This document shows, piece by piece, positions 21,919 to 43,581 of a stretch of 64,000 nucleotides of DNA. The position numbers were made by a program, and so were the translations under genes. The notes below the pieces were generated by a model that was given only the letters and a program-made list of their open reading frames with translations, was not told the DNA's origin and did no database searches. Within the stretch, counting starts at the first letter, position 1; every line of letters begins with the position of its first letter. The stretch comes from Lutibacter sp. (GTDB lineage: Bacteria > Bacteroidota > Bacteroidia > Flavobacteriales > Flavobacteriaceae): contig NZ_JBFFOE010000005.1 of assembly GCF_041562875.1 (NCBI RefSeq), positions 454 to 64,453 on the forward strand, read 5' to 3'.

Positions 21919-24105
21919 TTATCTTGTAAATAATAACTCTCTATATTTAGTTAATGGCCACAACTCATCATCAATCATCAATTCTAATTTATCACAATGT
22001 AATCTAATCTCATCAAAAAATGGTTTTACTTTAAAGCAATATGCATCAGCCATTGCTTCAATATTTTCTAATTTATTTGCTTTTTTACGCGCATCAATCA
22101 TTTTATCAATTTTGGAATGTATTCCTTCAATATGCTCAGAAATTCTTTTAATTAACAAAATTTGTTCTGCAGCATGTTTTTCAAAATCTGTTCCAAAAAT
22201 TTCTTTTAAGCCCGTAACATTTTTAATTAACAAGTTTTGGTAACGAACCGCTGTTGGAACCACATGATTACCAGCAATATCACCTAAAACACGAGATTCT
22301 ATTTGAATACGCTTTGTATACTCTTCCATTTCAACTTCATAGCGTACCACAGTTTCAACCTTACTCATCACATTCATTTCTTCAAATAAATCAATTGTTT
22401 TTTTAGAAATTTTAGCTTTTAATGCCTCGGGTGTTGTTTTATTATTACTTAAACCTCTTTTCTTTGCTTCTTTTTCCCATTCAATTCCGTAACCATTTCC
22501 TTCAAATAAAATTCTTTTAGATGCTTTTATGTATTCTCTTAGTACATTAAAAACGGCTTCATCTTTCTTTAAATCTTTCGTATCTATTAATTTATCAACT
22601 TCTATTTTAAAATCTTTTAACTGTTTCGCAACTATTGTGTTTAAAACTTTCATTGGTTTTGCACAGTTAGCTGTTGAGCCAACAGCTCTAAATTCAAATT
22701 TATTACCTGTAAACGCAAATGGAGATGTTCTGTTTCTATCTGTATTGTCTAATAACACATCAGGAATTTTACCCACAACGTTTAGTTTAAGGTCTGTTTT
22801 TTCTTCAGGAGAAAGTTTTCCATTTGTTACATTCTCTAGTTCATCTAAAACTTTGGTTAATTGAGCTCCAATAAAAACTGAAATAATTGCTGGTGGTGCT
22901 TCATTAGCTCCTAATCTATGATCATTACTTGCTGATGCTATAACAGCTCTCAACAATTCTTCATTTTCATTAACAGCTTTAATTGTGTTAATAAAGAATG
23001 TCAGAAATTGAAGATTGCTCATTGGAGTTTTTCCTGGTGATAACAAATTAATACCTGTGTCTGTTGATAATGACCAGTTATTATGTTTTCCTGAACCATT
23101 TACACTAGAAAAGGGTTTTTCATGCAGTAGCACTTTAAAATGATGACGTGCAGCAACTTTTCCCATTAAATCCATTAATAATGAATTATGATCTACTGCT
23201 AAATTTGCTTCTTCATAAATAGGTGCCAATTCAAACTGGTTTGGGGCTACCTCATTATGACGTGTTTTTACAGGAATTCCCAACAACATACACTCGGTTT
23301 CCAAATCGCGCATAAAATTCAATGCTCTACCAGGAATTGAACCAAAATAATGATCATCTAACTGTTGCCCTTTTGCAGGCGAATGCCCCAATAATGTTCT
23401 ACCTGTTAACATAATGTCAGGCCTACTTTCGGCTAAAGCTTTATCTATTAAAAAATATTCTTGTTCCCAACCAAGTGACGAAGTTACTTTTTTTACATTT
23501 TTATCGAAATATTTACAAACAGCAGTTGCTGAAGAATCCAAAGCTTGTAAAGCTCTTAACAAAGGTGTTTTATTATCTAAAGCTTCCCCTGTATATGCCA
23601 CAAATATGGTTGGTATACTTAAAGTAGTACCATACACAAATGCCGGTGATGTTGGATCCCAAGCAGTGTAGCCTCTTGCTTCAAACGTATTTCTTATTCC
23701 TCCATTTGGAAAACTTGAAGCATCTGGTTCTTGTTGCACCAATTCATTTCCTCCAAATCTTTCAATAGCCATACCTCCTCCAATAGTTTCAAAAAAAGCA
23801 TCATGTTTTTCTGCAGTTGCTCCAGTTAACGGTTGAAACCAATGTGTATAATGTGTCACTCCTTTAGACATAGCCCATTCTTTCATTGCTGAAGCTACTT
23901 GATTCGCAATTTTTCGATCAATTTTAGTACCATCATCAATAGCGCTCATTACACCTTTAAAGGCATCTTTAGTTAAATATTGGCGCATTGTATTTTCATT
24001 AAACACGTTTTGACCAAATAATTCTGATCTTTTTATACTTTCAATAACTTCAACAGGTTTTCTGTTAGAAGCATCGGTTAAAGCTTGAAATCTTAATCTT
24101 GCCAT
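21919..24105 (-). CDS. glnA: Glutamine synthetase type III
   Basis: 728 aa. Motifs THYTHWFQPLTG, EPDASSFPNGG, RGYTAWD, HNEVAPNQFE, NGSGKHNNWS, RLGANEAPP, DRNRTSPFAFTGNKFEFRA. Confidence 0.96.
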   Translation of the reverse strand: MARLRFQALTDASNRKPVEVIESIKRSELFGQNVFNENTMRQYLTKDAFKGVMSAIDDGTKIDRKIANQVASAMKEWAMSKGVTHYTHWFQPLTGATAEKHDAFFETIGGGMAIERFGGNELVQQEPDASSFPNGGIRNTFEARGYTAWDPTSPAFVYGTTLSIPTIFVAYTGEALDNKTPLLRALQALDSSATAVCKYFDKNVKKVTSSLGWEQEYFLIDKALAESRPDIMLTGRTLLGHSPAKGQQLDDHYFGSIPGRALNFMRDLETECMLLGIPVKTRHNEVAPNQFELAPIYEEANLAVDHNSLLMDLMGKVAARHHFKVLLHEKPFSSVNGSGKHNNWSLSTDTGINLLSPGKTPMSNLQFLTFFINTIKAVNENEELLRAVIASASNDHRLGANEAPPAIISVFIGAQLTKVLDELENVTNGKLSPEEKTDLKLNVVGKIPDVLLDNTDRNRTSPFAFTGNKFEFRAVGSTANCAKPMKVLNTIVAKQLKDFKIEVDKLIDTKDLKKDEAVFNVLREYIKASKRILFEGNGYGIEWEKEAKKRGLSNNKTTPEALKAKISKKTIDLFEEMNVMSKVETVVRYEVEMEEYTKRIQIESRVLGDIAGNHVVPTAVRYQNLLIKNVTGLKEIFGTDFEKHAAEQILLIKRISEHIEGIHSKIDKMIDARKKANKLENIEAMADAYCFKVKPFFDEIRLHCDKLELMIDDELWPLTKYRELLFTR

Positions 24106-24205
24106 ATTCTAAATTTTAAATTGTTCAACAAATATAAACTTTTTAGTAGAATAATTATTATCATTTTTCATTAAATAATTCATTTAAGTTGAATTATTCT
24201 ATATT

Positions 24206-24263
24206 AACCCCAAAAAAAATAGGGTATCCATAAAAATATTGATCTCAATAACATTTACACCCC
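24206..24263. promoter_or_regulatory. CCC-N11-GGG palindrome plus a half-site 52-53 bp away, between the divergent GS genes
   Basis: AACCC-CAAAAAAAATA-GGGTA at 24206-24226 and TTTACACCCC at 24254-24263. Same motif as the array upstream of glnK. Confidence 0.6.
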
Positions 24264-24335
24264 TTATATTTTTATTATATGATGAAAATATTTATTTTTG
24301 TCAAACATTTTGTATTTAATAAAACAAGAATTTAT

Positions 24336-25346
24336 ATGAGCAAATCAAAATTAGAATACATTTGGTTAGATGGGCATCAACCAACTCAAGAATTAAGAAG
24401 TAAAACAAAAGTTGAAAATGACTTTAGTGGAAAATTGGAAGATTGTAGCATTTGGTCTTTTGACGGTTCTTCTACTGAACAAGCTGAAGGTGGTTCTTCT
24501 GACTGTTTACTTAAACCTGTAGCTATTTATCCTGATCCGTCAAGACGCAATGGTTATTTAGTTATGTGTGAAGTATTAAATGCTGATAAAACCCCTCACG
24601 TATCAAATCATCGTGCAACAATTGATGATGATGATAACGATTTTTGGTTTGGTTTTGAGCAAGAATATTTCTTAATGGATTCTAAAACTGATTTACCTTT
24701 AGGTTTCCCACGTGGGGGATTCCCTGGGCCACAAGGGAAATACTATTGTTCAGTTGGAGGTAGATATACTTGGGGTAGAGATTTTGTTGAAGAACATGCA
24801 GACCTATGTATTGATGCTGGACTTAACTTTGAAGGAATTAACCAAGAGGTTGCTCCTGGACAATGGGAATTTCAATGTTTTGCACAAAGCGCTAAAACTG
24901 CCGGTGATGAAATTTGGGTAGCAAGATATTTATTAAATAGATTGTCAGAAAAATACAATTACTATATTGAATTACATCCAAAACCTGTAAAAGGAGACTG
25001 GAACGGTTCTGGTATGCATGCAAACTTTTCAAATACTACTTTAAGAACTTGTGGATCTAAAGAAATTTATAGTAAAATTTGCGAAGCATTTAGACCTTTA
25101 ACAGACGAGCATATTGGCGTTTATGGTGCATATAATGATGAAAGATTAACAGGATTGCATGAAACAGCTCACGTTTCAGATTTCTCTTATGGAGTATCTG
25201 ACAGAGGTGCCTCAATCCGTATTCCTATTATTACTGTTGAAAAAGGATGGAAAGGTTGGTTAGAAGACCGTCGTCCTGCTTCAAATGCTGACCCATATAA
25301 AGTTGCATCAAGAATTATTAGAACTGTTAATTCAGCTAAATTATAA
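24336..25346 (+). CDS. glnII: Glutamine synthetase type II
   Basis: KLEYIWLDG, WSFDGSST, FGFEQEY, GINQEVAPGQWEFQ, DWNGSGMHANFS, RLTGLHET, RGASIRIP, LEDRRPASNADPY. ATG 24336 follows a TATTTTTG box at 24293. Confidence 0.95.
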   Translation: MSKSKLEYIWLDGHQPTQELRSKTKVENDFSGKLEDCSIWSFDGSSTEQAEGGSSDCLLKPVAIYPDPSRRNGYLVMCEVLNADKTPHVSNHRATIDDDDNDFWFGFEQEYFLMDSKTDLPLGFPRGGFPGPQGKYYCSVGGRYTWGRDFVEEHADLCIDAGLNFEGINQEVAPGQWEFQCFAQSAKTAGDEIWVARYLLNRLSEKYNYYIELHPKPVKGDWNGSGMHANFSNTTLRTCGSKEIYSKICEAFRPLTDEHIGVYGAYNDERLTGLHETAHVSDFSYGVSDRGASIRIPIITVEKGWKGWLEDRRPASNADPYKVASRIIRTVNSAKL

Positions 25347-26476: not shown

Positions 26477-26486
26477 TACGTTTGTA

Positions 26487-26580
26487 ATGCGTTAAGGATT
26501 GAAGTGGCATCCTTTTTATTTTTTATTAATAAAAAGATATAACGAAAAGCCTGACGCGAGTGAAACGAAGCGGAACGCAC
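26487..26580 (+). ncRNA. Flavo-1-like structured RNA / repeated element
   Basis: GCGTTAAGGATTGAAGTGGCATCCTTTTT...AAAAAGATATAACGAAAAGCCTGAC resembles my recollection of the Flavo-1 motif and is more GC-rich than its flanks. Not confirmed with a covariance model. Confidence 0.55.
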
Positions 26581-26593
26581 AAATATTTAATAG

Positions 26594-26959
26594 ATGGAAA
26601 AACTAACCAATAAAGAAGAAGAAATAATGCACGTTTTATGGACGCTTACTAAAGCTTTTGTAAAAGAAGTTGTTGCTGAATTACCAATGCCAAAACCACA
26701 TTACAACACAGTTTCAACAGTAATTAGAAAAATGGAGGATAAAGGGTATGTAAAACATGAAGCCTTTGGAAACACACACAGATATTATCCTGCTATATCA
26801 AAAGAAGAATATCGGAAAAATTATTTTTCAAGTGCTACACAAAATTATTTTGAAAATTCCTACAAAAATGTAGTCTCCTTTTTTGCGAAAGAAGAAAAAA
26901 TAAGCGCTGATGAATTACGTGAAATTATTAAACTTATTGAAAGTAAAAACAACCAATAA
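26594..26959 (+). CDS. BlaI/MecI/CopY family repressor
   Basis: LTNKEEEIMHVLW, HYNTVSTVIRKMEDKGYV, YYPAISKEEY, VVSFF. Confidence 0.93.
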   Translation: MEKLTNKEEEIMHVLWTLTKAFVKEVVAELPMPKPHYNTVSTVIRKMEDKGYVKHEAFGNTHRYYPAISKEEYRKNYFSSATQNYFENSYKNVVSFFAKEEKISADELREIIKLIESKNNQ

Positions 26960-26961
26960 TT

Positions 26962-28677
26962 ATGGACTATTTATTAAAGGCTAGCGGAATAGTTTTAATA
27001 CTTTTCTTATTTTATTATGTATTCTTAAAAAATGAGACTTTTTTTAAGTCAATTAGAAGTTATTTTATCATTGGATTATTAATAGTATTAACAATTCCCT
27101 TGATTGATATACCTATTTATGTTGAAACTATTAAATCTCAACTAAACTTGCTTAATTATGAAGAAATTGCTTCCACAAACATTACTGAACAAACTATTAA
27201 TTGGACTCAAATCTTTATTTTCATATATTTAATTGGTGTAGTTTTTTTTACTTTAAAATTTTTAATGCAATTAATTTCATTAGGGAATTTAATTTCAAAA
27301 CATCAATTAACAAAGCAAGGCAACTATTATTTTGTTGAAACTTCAAAAAACATTTCACCATTTTCATTTTTTAACATTATAATTTATAACAAATCACAAT
27401 TCAATATTGATGAACTTGAGCAAATTATAAATCATGAAAAAGCACACGTGCAACAGTGGCATTCTATTGACACACTTTTAGCTCACTTATTAGTAATTAC
27501 GCTATGGTTTAATCCGTTTGTTTGGTTATATAAAAAGGCAGTTCAACAAAATCTTGAATTTTTAGCTGATGCATATGCATTAGAACTAGCAGATAATCAC
27601 AAATTATATCAATTTACTTTATTAAAAACCTGTGGAGCAAATTACTGCACAGAAATAACAAACAATTTTTACAATTCATTAATTAAAAAACGCATTATTA
27701 TGTTACAAAAAAATCGTTCTACATCAAAAAATCAATGGAAATATGCTTTATTGCTACCTTTACTAACAGCATTTGTATTTACCTTCAACACTAAAGTAAT
27801 TGCTCAAGAAAAAAAAGTAATAGAAATTGAAGAAATCAACAATGAACTGATTGAATTAATTATTGACAAAAATACTTCTGATGAAACATTAAACGAAGAA
27901 AAAATAACTTTCAAACAAGAATTCGATATTACCATATCATTTAAAGGAATCAAACGAAATGCTAATAATGAAATAACTGCAATTAAAATTGATGCAAAAG
28001 GGAAAAATTTAAAATCAAAATTTGAAAACGCAAGTTCTGAACCAATAAAGGCAATTAAAATTTCATATAATTCTGATTACAACTCACTAAATATAAGTAA
28101 CCTGAGTAAGGTTTACAAAAATAGTTATACTTATACAATACATGAAGATAACGATAGTGCTAAAAAAGTAAAATTCAAACCAAATAAAGATGACAATTAT
28201 GCTTTTGTAACTTCAGATGGTAAAACAAAACTATGGAAAACAAAAGGAGATAGTAAAAATGTATGGGTTCAAGAACAAGGCAAAGAAAGCAACATTAAAG
28301 TTGAAGTAATTGAACTTAAAGAAGGAGAACGTGAAGTAAAAGTAATCCATGAAATAAATAAGGATGAAATAAATGAGGACATAGAAATAGAAATTAATGA
28401 AGACAGTGCATCTGAAAATGTTTTTGTGATTAAAACTGATCGTGACAAAAAAAATAAACAAAAAATTACCAAAAAAGAAAATTTAATTTTTGTAAGCTCC
28501 GGAAGTGAAGAGCCGATAACTTTTGTTGATGGTAAAGAAGTTTCAACTGAAGAAATGAAAAACATTGAACCAGATACAATAGAAAAAATAGAAGTATTAA
28601 AAGGGAACTCTGCAACAGATAAATATGGTGAAAAAGGAAAAAATGGGGTTATTTTAATTACTATCAAAAAGCAATAA
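26962..28677 (+). CDS. BlaR1-type M56 metallopeptidase with a C-terminal TonB-dependent-receptor plug-like domain
   Basis: SPFSFFN, HEKAH zinc motif, WFNPFVW, EFLAD, SLIKKRIIML. The C-terminus reads PITFVDGKE..IEKIEVLKG..YGEKGKNGVILIT. Confidence 0.9.
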   Translation: MDYLLKASGIVLILFLFYYVFLKNETFFKSIRSYFIIGLLIVLTIPLIDIPIYVETIKSQLNLLNYEEIASTNITEQTINWTQIFIFIYLIGVVFFTLKFLMQLISLGNLISKHQLTKQGNYYFVETSKNISPFSFFNIIIYNKSQFNIDELEQIINHEKAHVQQWHSIDTLLAHLLVITLWFNPFVWLYKKAVQQNLEFLADAYALELADNHKLYQFTLLKTCGANYCTEITNNFYNSLIKKRIIMLQKNRSTSKNQWKYALLLPLLTAFVFTFNTKVIAQEKKVIEIEEINNELIELIIDKNTSDETLNEEKITFKQEFDITISFKGIKRNANNEITAIKIDAKGKNLKSKFENASSEPIKAIKISYNSDYNSLNISNLSKVYKNSYTYTIHEDNDSAKKVKFKPNKDDNYAFVTSDGKTKLWKTKGDSKNVWVQEQGKESNIKVEVIELKEGEREVKVIHEINKDEINEDIEIEINEDSASENVFVIKTDRDKKNKQKITKKENLIFVSSGSEEPITFVDGKEVSTEEMKNIEPDTIEKIEVLKGNSATDKYGEKGKNGVILITIKKQ

Positions 28678-40955: not shown

Positions 40956-41636
40956 CTATAATGATATTAGAAATACTAAATATGCATCTTCAGTATCTGG
41001 ATTGAATATTGCCGATGCAGAAACACCTAAACTAAATGAATCTGTCATTTTAATATCTTTTGATGCGGAAACACCAAAATTAGTAACTGCAAAATCACCA
41101 TCAAGTGAATAAATTTCATTACCTGCCCCAACAAAAGCGCTTAATTCTGTTTCTCCTACTTTAAAAGGATATCTTATTTCTGTATAAATAGAATTTTGAT
41201 CATCATTGTAAATGTTAACACCAATCATAGCTGTTAAAGGAAATTTTTCAACCCCATCAAAAGTTAAAGTTGTTTCACCAATATGGTTTTTCATTTGAAA
41301 ATAACCGTCTGATACACCATCTACTGGAAATGCATAATCCGTAAATCCTAATGAAACTGGACCGAAAGAATAACTTGCATACAAATCGAATTCTTGCCCA
41401 ACCACTTGTCCGCCAGTTTCATAAGAAGCCCAAGCTCCTAATGTGAAATTTCCTGAGGTAAGCTCAACATAAGGTTGAACAGCAGGCGAATCAGAAAATT
41501 CTAAACCTCTCCATACATACCTACTTGCGAAATCTACTCCAATATCTAATGAAGCTTTCGTTTCTTCTTGTGCATTTATTGTACTTACTAATAAAATTGT
41601 TATCAATACCAATATTGCTTTTTTAATTGTTTTCAT
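40956..41636 (-). CDS. Putative porin (TorF / Gcw_chp-like beta-barrel) downstream of amtB
   Basis: Signal peptide, DFASRYVWRG, PAVQP, LGAWAS, EFDLYASY, amphipathic strands. Confidence 0.75.
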   Translation of the reverse strand: MKTIKKAILVLITILLVSTINAQEETKASLDIGVDFASRYVWRGLEFSDSPAVQPYVELTSGNFTLGAWASYETGGQVVGQEFDLYASYSFGPVSLGFTDYAFPVDGVSDGYFQMKNHIGETTLTFDGVEKFPLTAMIGVNIYNDDQNSIYTEIRYPFKVGETELSAFVGAGNEIYSLDGDFAVTNFGVSASKDIKMTDSFSLGVSASAIFNPDTEDAYLVFLISL

Positions 41637-41741
41637 ACTCTTTGCTTTAATATTTTTATTTTATTTTTTAGGCATTATGTACCCTATTAAGTGATGTTTC
41701 ACTTAATTATATTCTTAATAATAAATTTAAATTATTGCTTA

Positions 41742-43379: not shown

Positions 43380-43387
43380 CAAAAATA
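43380..43387 (-). promoter_or_regulatory. -7 box of the glnK-amtB operon
   Basis: TATTTTTG on the minus strand. A TTTG -33 candidate at 43408-43411 lies inside the first palindrome. Confidence 0.6.
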
Positions 43388-43401
43388 TAATTATATTTTA
43401 T

Positions 43402-43581
43402 TACCCCCAAATTTTTTATGGGTAGTGTGGTTATTTTTATTATTTTATTTACTTATACCCTATTTTTTTATGGGTAATTTAAATATTATTATTATTTATT
43501 AAGAATTATACCCTAATTTTTTATGGGCATATAATTTGAAAATAAGAATATATGATTATACACCCCAAATTTTAGAGGGTA
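43402..43581. repeat. Array of four CCC-N11-GGG palindromes with a 52-53-bp period
   Basis: GGG half-sites start at 43420, 43472, 43525 and 43577. Spacers are aaattttttat, tatttttttat, taattttttat and caaattttaga. Confidence 0.9.

Follow-up and report, generated by a model that had tools for sequence, protein, structure and literature searches.

The 21-bp palindrome at 24206-24226, which lies between back-to-back genes for two glutamine synthetase (GS) isoenzymes in Lutibacter sp., is probably the operator of a nitrogen-responsive DNA-binding protein conserved across the Bacteroidia, and would have two roles: distal site of the GSII promoter and older operator of the divergent GSIII gene. New here are the apparently asymmetric use of one operator by two GS isoenzymes and the assignment of a neighbouring half-site to GSII, along with a deletion series among Lutibacter genomes, the co-occurrence of the motif with GSIII, and the rejection of an Rrf2-family regulator.

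Layout of the GSIII/GSII spacer

The window, by which I mean the whole stretch of 64,000 nucleotides that was analysed, comes from a low-GC member of the Flavobacteriaceae (genome GC 29.7%). The two GS genes in it are separated by a spacer of 230 bp, and its relevant features are these:

21919-24105, minus strand: gene for a GSIII (glnN-type) glutamine synthetase, 728 aa (Pfam GSIII_N, 6e-78; Gln-synt_C-ter; Gln-synt_C)
24129-24136, minus strand: predicted GSIII -7 box, TATATTTG on the minus strand (TAnnTTTG), read directly; the plus strand is caaatata
24206-24226, no strand assigned: full palindrome aaCCCCAAAAAAAATAGGGta, 21 bp, with its CCC-N11-GGG core at 24208-24224; proposed high-affinity operator common to both genes
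24225-24237, plus strand: right flank TATCnATAAAAAT, adjoining the palindrome on the GSII side; its columns in the genus alignment A1 vary little or not at all
24254-24263, plus strand: proximal half-site tttacaCCCC, with its CCCC at 24260-24263, 52 bp downstream of the palindrome CCCC at 24208
24293-24300, plus strand: predicted GSII -7 box, TATTTTTG, read directly; kept in the genus alignment A1
24336-25346, plus strand: gene for a GSII-type, GSII-sized glutamine synthetase, 336 aa, ATG at 24336 (Pfam Gln-synt_N, Gln-synt_C)
43404-43581, minus strand: upstream array of glnK-amtB, in which the motif of the palindrome occurs four times, with cores at 43406, 43458, 43511 and 43563

Direct reading of the sequence places both boxes, the palindrome and the half-site where an earlier note on this DNA had put them. 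The predicted -7 boxes of both genes fit the Bacteroidetes primary-sigma promoter, in which TAnnTTTG at -7 lies about 20-50 nt before the start codon and is accompanied by TTTG at -33. From the edges of the palindrome it is 70 nt to the GSIII -7 box and 67 nt to the GSII -7 box; measured from the palindrome centre (24216) to the box centres, the distances are 83.5 and 80.5 bp, respectively. GSIII in this window is without a proximal site. The right flank TATCnATAAAAAT is possibly an extended contact or an A-tract bend.

The glnK-amtB array lies 19.2 kb from the GS spacer, is adjoined by genes with the Pfam domains P-II and Ammonium_transp, and has successive spacings of 52, 53 and 52 bp. The centre of its site 1 is found about 30 bp before the predicted glnK -7 box (TATTTTTG, minus strand, about 43381-43388). 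The pattern CCC-N11-GGG occurs six times in the window against 1.28 expected, and five of the six matches are at the GS and glnK-amtB loci. Genome-wide, the bare pattern is not clearly enriched (44 matches against about 32 expected from a rough base-frequency estimate), so the case rests on the position of the sites and on their conservation.

The window also holds an Rfam Flavo-1 RNA at 26482-26560 (plus strand; 55.6 bits, above the gathering score), just upstream of a BlaI-like repressor gene (26594-26959) that is followed by a BlaR-like gene (26962-28677). After amtB comes a 226-aa gene (40956-41636, minus strand) with no Pfam match, whose product by eye has a signal peptide and resembles an outer-membrane beta-barrel; a half-site-like element, gtaCCCtatta, is found at 41679-41690, about 45 bp upstream of the start of this gene.

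Conservation of the palindrome and its spacing to each gene

Scanning one genome per species gave 80 GSII loci from many Flavobacteriaceae genera, 61 of which have a divergent GSIII gene with both start codons matched. An exact CCC-N11-GGG was found in 55 of these 61 orthologous spacers, and four of the other six contain an N10 or N12 variant; from base composition I estimate that roughly 0.002 such matches are expected per 200-bp AT-rich spacer. The phylogenetic footprinting that the earlier note had proposed as a check therefore supports the motif as a real conserved cis-element, common, as that note had argued, to the GS and glnK-amtB nitrogen-assimilation loci. On sequence comparison, then, its conservation, its spacing and its association with each gene are established. 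The consensus of the aligned sites is (T/A)ACCCC-T-A6-7-TA-GGGGT. Within the genus, an alignment of 13 spacers (A1) contains four conserved islands amid variable AT-rich DNA: the GSIII -7 box, the palindrome together with its right flank TATCnATAAAAAT, the half-site TTTTTACCCC, and the GSII -7 box. The best conserved block is the palindrome; the GSIII side of the spacer is rich in insertions and deletions, and a block ACGAA(T/G)ATA at the GSIII -7 box is kept in the GSII-containing Lutibacter spacers. The full palindrome is missing in the divergent GS pairs of three genomes from another genus of the same family (L104-L106). In a Flavobacterium-like genus, the GS spacer is without a full palindrome and the amtB genes have arrays of G-run half-sites with a period of about 53 bp, as well as palindromes over the start site.

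It is mainly this conservation across orthologous spacers that excludes chance, and it makes scarcely credible the idea that the palindrome is an accidental G/C island, a repeat element, an RNA hairpin or a terminator rather than a protein site. The near-expected genome-wide count of the bare pattern fits that idea, as does a scan of 151 Bacteroidia genomes in which CCC-W11-GGG was no commoner than its reversed control, and the CCCC/GGGG stem could pair. However, CCC-W11-GGG is too strict a pattern, because real sites mostly have CCCC/GGGG runs; most of 60 such sites that were fetched are inside genes and none is beside GS, amtB or glnK. A chance or RNA element would also have to be squared with a position that is kept in 55 of 61 loci across many genera and recurs in other families, with a fixed spacing to the GSII -7 box, and with C and G runs that are invariant and show no compensatory changes. 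Moreover, the palindrome lies upstream of both predicted promoters, and the spacer contains no T-run, no terminator-like site and no Rfam match.

Relative to GSII, the geometry is rigid. Centre to centre, palindrome and GSII -7 box are 81.6 ± 0.9 bp apart (56 loci), and from the palindrome to the GSII start codon it is 120 ± 5.6 bp. The second half-site and the 52-53 bp period described in the earlier note are conserved as well, with a CCC at +50 to +54 from the palindrome in 56 of 58 loci. This half-site has its virtual centre about 27-30 bp ahead of the middle of the GSII -7 box, which is the geometry of site 1 in the glnK-amtB array. Of 55 sites, 40 have the A-tract of the palindrome spacer on the sense strand of GSII and five have it on the other strand; at the glnK sites its polarity relative to glnK is the same as at GSII.

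Relative to GSIII, the distances are far more variable: 86.6 ± 23 bp (range 51-161) from the palindrome to the start codon, and 12-106 bp to the predicted -7 box, with modes at about 40-41, 76, 65, 51, 30, 84 and 105 bp. The last distance is 51-85 bp in GSII-containing Lutibacter and 30-42 bp in several genera. Helical phasing of the GSIII distances is weakly supported (Rayleigh p ~0.03 at 10.5 bp, computed on distinct values from related genomes that are not independent). The earlier note had described the palindrome as centred between the two promoters, which is true of this window but does not hold across genera. Because the distance to the GSIII promoter varies so widely, the symmetric placement seen here is, as far as sequence comparison goes, a local coincidence and not a conserved property.

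These contrasting distances could be taken to mean that, in GSII-containing genomes, the palindrome and half-site regulate GSII only, GSIII being effectively constitutive and the position of the palindrome incidental to it. I regard this as rather unlikely, even though the spacing is rigid on one side and runs through indel-rich DNA on the other, the A-tract polarity follows GSII, and the GSIII gene of the window has no proximal site. Against it speak the Lutibacter genomes that have no GSII. GSII is present in 16 of the 41 genomes of the genus, and 24 of the 25 without it have GSIII; GSII appears to be an accessory gene that was repeatedly lost. In GSII-containing Lutibacter, the palindrome is present in 13 of 14 spacers and the half-site in 13 of 13. 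In the GSII-less genomes, the palindrome is kept in all 23 readable GSIII upstream regions, mostly 40-41 bp from a consensus GSIII -7 box, whereas the half-site CCC is kept in only five of 21. The GSII-less genomes may form one clade, in which case the 23 of 23 would not be 23 independent events; still, the decay of the half-site in the same genomes does show that there was time for unconstrained sequence to change. That the half-site decayed while the palindrome was kept indicates that the palindrome is under selection without GSII, and by the same comparison the half-site belongs to the GSII promoter alone. The motif at GSIII-only promoters across the Bacteroidia, and the sites within 30-42 bp of the GSIII -7 box in several genera, also count against regulation of GSII only.

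Thus, the suggestion of the earlier note that one site serves both GS genes is upheld by the comparison, which indicates that the palindrome belongs to GSIII as well as to GSII. In this particular window its effect on GSIII could be weak, since the palindrome is 83.5 bp from the -7 box and a proximal site is lacking. Read by eye, the DNA on the right of the palindrome continues in GSII-less genomes into the gene for the Na/Ca exchanger, which in the window comes after GSII. At one GSII-less locus (L149), the palindrome and half-site are retained and are followed, some 215-330 nt past the start of GSIII, by decayed traces of the N-terminus of GSII.

Wider distribution of the motif and the search for its regulator

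GSIII was found in 144 of the 151 sampled Bacteroidia genomes. Among 29 GSIII upstream regions fetched from other families, 20 have one of two features, a palindrome with an A/T core or a GGGG-N32-38-CCCC module; shuffled sequences gave 0.4. Where GSIII stands alone, some regions (L121-L123) have the palindrome, a half-site 52 bp downstream and then the -7 box, and some families keep only the inner halves of both sites (A6-TA-GGGGG-TGTT ... TACCCCC). Overall, several families of Bacteroidia have the motif, with its period of 52-53 bp, in front of genes for GS and ammonium uptake.

The position of the palindrome differs in some lineages. In five GSIII regions (L109, L113, L116, L111 and L120) the full palindrome comes after the -7 box, where it covers the start site or falls in the 5' leader, and two amtB paralogues of the Flavobacterium-like genus (L262 and L267) likewise have it downstream of the -7 box; in such lineages the C-run half-site stays near -40. 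Judged by their placement, palindromes over the start site or in the leader suggest repression or a dual mode of action. A further conserved motif, TGTT(A/G)ATAA(A), either follows immediately on the distal site's G-run or precedes the proximal CCCC by 4-6 bp. It is present in class-level GSIII promoters (L108, L110, L114, L115, L117, L118, L127, L128 and L131) and in Flavobacteriaceae (L005, L009, L033, L035 and L056), and is not conserved in Lutibacter. It may extend the contact or bind a second factor.

The motif is also absent in a consistent pattern. I did not find the palindrome at 16 Flavobacteriaceae GSII loci that are without a divergent GSIII, and the 16 genomes concerned have no GSIII at all. 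In the 13 of these genomes in which amtB was found, its upstream region contains no A/T-core site; this includes five orthologous glnK-amtB operons, of which that of T. geojense is ambiguous, with two G-runs 62 bp apart. Three genomes of g43, a GSIII-less genus of another family, have no motif at amtB either. This pattern of absence indicates that the motif and GSIII co-occur, and genome streamlining may account for part of the co-occurrence.

What protein might bind the motif? The palindrome resembles the type-2 pattern of E. coli IscR (AxxxCCxxAxxxxxxxTAxGGxxxT), and the presence of Rrf2-family genes (PF02082) at first seems to agree: in a panel of 33 Flavobacteriaceae genomes they occur in 16 of 17 motif-bearing genomes and in one of 16 motif-free genomes. 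The candidate would be a 138-aa gene (G000 C3:55469-55885). Even so, it is very improbable that the regulator is an Rrf2-family protein. An Rrf2 gene of any kind is found in only 73 of the 151 sampled Bacteroidia, and is missing from at least 12 of the 24 genomes whose GSIII motifs are clear (G054, G098, G037 and G066 among them), whereas g43, which lacks both GSIII and the motif, does have one. The panel itself contains exceptions, namely G212, with the motif and no Rrf2 gene, and G006, with an Rrf2 gene and no clear motif. The orthologue usually comes after a gene whose product end is, by eye, of metY type, which suggests sulfur metabolism, and the NCBIfam match is at superfamily level only. 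The class-wide distribution and the gene context thus led me to reject an Rrf2/IscR-like regulator, and the correlation in the panel is best explained by genome streamlining.

As for the Rrf2 genes themselves, that at G000 C3:55469-55885 (minus strand) encodes four conserved cysteines (C-x9-C-x2-C-x5-6-C), fits no characterised Rrf2 subfamily, and is apparently co-transcribed with two genes that by eye resemble amidinotransferases/citrulline hydrolases. A second one (G000 C7:44520-44969, plus strand) lies beside genes that look, again by eye, like norB, norQ, norD and a di-iron-repair gene, and is probably an NsrR-type nitric-oxide sensor.

Other searches for a regulator and for further targets were conducted. 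Clustering all open reading frames at 109 GS loci revealed no plausible regulator gene recurring beside the targets; the neighbours that do recur are the Na/Ca exchanger, the BlaI/BlaR pair and a group of ~415-aa proteins. Scans of the genome with a half-site matrix and with ACCC-N27-31-TAnnTTTG returned the GS and glnK loci only, plus matches that are unconvincing as regulon sites: C83:6970, next to a hairpin that resembles a terminator; C72:13113, which follows a gene fragment of CRP-like appearance (by eye); and a site upstream of an lpxD-like gene (by eye). At the first of these (G000 C83:6950-6995), a CCCCTTTTTAAAATAGGGTA element overlaps a GGGG-N6-CCCC hairpin. This is the sole other intergenic high-scoring match in the genome, lies 157 bp upstream of an operon that ends in a response regulator resembling the NarL type by eye, and is probably a terminator. 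In full-text searches of the literature, among them some for the spelled-out motif, neither the motif nor a nitrogen regulator of Bacteroidota was found described.

Proposed mode of action and comparison with known systems

From the arrangement of sites I infer protein binding, cooperativity and a response to nitrogen. In the GSII promoter the palindrome would be the strong distal site of a two-site module: the regulator bound to it would help a second copy to bind the weak half-site 52 bp downstream, a distance of five helical turns that would place both on the same face of the DNA. This half-site overlies -33 of the predicted GSII promoter, some 30 bp ahead of the -7 box, and site 1 of the glnK-amtB array is placed likewise at its own promoter. 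For the divergent GSIII gene, the palindrome would be the older operator, retained even after deletion of GSII, and protein bound there would act on GSIII too. A single regulator might have two modes, activating or repressing according to where its site lies, because full palindromes elsewhere also sit over the transcription start or in the 5' leader. Proximal sites near -40 with arrays upstream resemble NtcA-type activator sites, while several proximal sites have TTTG embedded in their promoter-proximal half; this last feature and the start-site or leader palindromes fit repression or a dual mode.

The earlier note had raised the possibility that the two GS genes are controlled in opposite directions, for which no support was found. 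My preference is for GSII, GSIII and glnK-amtB being regulated together, all in the same direction. In Prevotella ruminicola, 26- to 69-fold changes occur jointly in amtB, glnK, GSIII-2 and gltBD, for which no regulator was named (PMC5552732), and this joint change makes same-direction control of the two GS genes the likelier option.

A bolder proposal, which I hold to be improbable, is that the regulator functionally depends on GSIII, either by reading the feedback state of the enzyme, much as TnrA and GlnR do with GS in Bacillus, or by having GSIII as part of the DNA-bound complex. Such a dependence would explain why the motif is absent in every sampled lineage that has lost GSIII (the 16 Flavobacteriaceae genomes and the three of g43), and why the operator lies directly before GSIII throughout the class. 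If it were true, the same complex would here couple the accessory GSII to the state of the housekeeping GSIII.

Returning to the palindrome as an operator with two roles, the locus is useful in several respects. Bacteroidota are a dominant phylum in the gut and in the degradation of marine particles. Within about 100 bp the spacer offers a compact test object, with a strong site, a weak site five helical turns away and two divergent readouts, and the Lutibacter strains with and without GSII provide a natural deletion series. The palindrome is a ready bait for DNA-affinity purification and so gives a direct handle on its proposed regulator, and the motif-free genomes (GSIII-less Flavobacteriaceae and g43) can be used as negative sets for phylogenetic profiling.

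How does this arrangement compare with known regulators? Sites of NarL/NarP are inverted heptamers, TACYYMT, set 2 bp apart (7-2-7). The half-site TACCCCT resembles such a heptamer, but the arrangement here is 7-8-7 (TACCCCC-A7T-AGGGGTA in L031), which departs from the pattern that defines this family. The site does not fit a LysR-type regulator either, whose T-N11-A sites are a strong one near -65 and a weak one near -35, about 20-30 bp apart; here the distance is 52 bp, and glnK has arrays of four sites. In E. coli, divergent operons controlled by CRP or NagC have one regulator site between divergent promoters. As in those operons, one palindrome between back-to-back genes can act on both, but the targets here are isoenzymes of one reaction and only GSII has a fixed geometry.

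NrpR of methanogens represses nitrogen genes from one to three operators per promoter, GGAA-N6-TTCC. AmtR of Corynebacterium is also a nitrogen-gene repressor with one to three operators per promoter, tttCTAT-N6-AtAG (PMC2723105). The likeness lies in the multiple operators upstream of amtB-glnK and GS genes, and a repressor model of this kind would explain why some palindromes cover the start site or lie in the leader (L109, L113, L116, L262 and L267); the motifs and the protein families differ. Neither AmtR nor NrpR is known in Bacteroidia.

TnrA and GlnR of Bacillus, which are MerR-family proteins, bind the box TGTNAN7TNACA and are themselves controlled by the binding of glutamine synthetase (PMC4335299, PMC9249791). 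There, as here, a nitrogen regulon is built around GS and an ammonium transporter, and paired sites act cooperatively (as I propose for the present sites). The co-occurrence of the motif with one GS, GSIII, would also fit a regulator that reads the state of the enzyme. In contrast to TnrA/GlnR, the regulator gene is not adjacent to the GS gene, the link between GS and regulator is drawn from co-occurrence, and TGTNAN7TNACA is missing from the aligned sites.

Finally, NtcA of cyanobacteria, a CRP/FNR-family protein responsive to 2-oxoglutarate, binds GTA-N8-TAC centred near -41.5 and is an activator or repressor depending on position (PMC5714215, PMC11850224). In Lutibacter the proximal half-site and glnK site 1, with centres about 30 bp upstream of the predicted -7 box, would lie at roughly -38 to -41. 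As with NtcA, the upstream promoter element of GS and ammonium-transporter genes would be overlapped or replaced by a palindromic site, about 40 bp ahead of the predicted start; glnA-type, amt and P-II genes would be under one regulator, and the promoter-overlapping sites of other lineages suggest a dual mode. The motif, unlike that of NtcA, is (T)ACCCC-N8-10-GGGGT(A), whose half-sites are centred about 15 bp from each other instead of 11, and no GTA-N8-TAC was seen in the aligned sites; the arrays with a period of 52-53 bp, the Bacteroidetes -7/-33 promoter and the lack of a CRP-family protein tied to the site also set it apart. In function, NtcA-type promoters come closest, together with the cooperative pairs of a strong and a weak site that other nitrogen regulators use.
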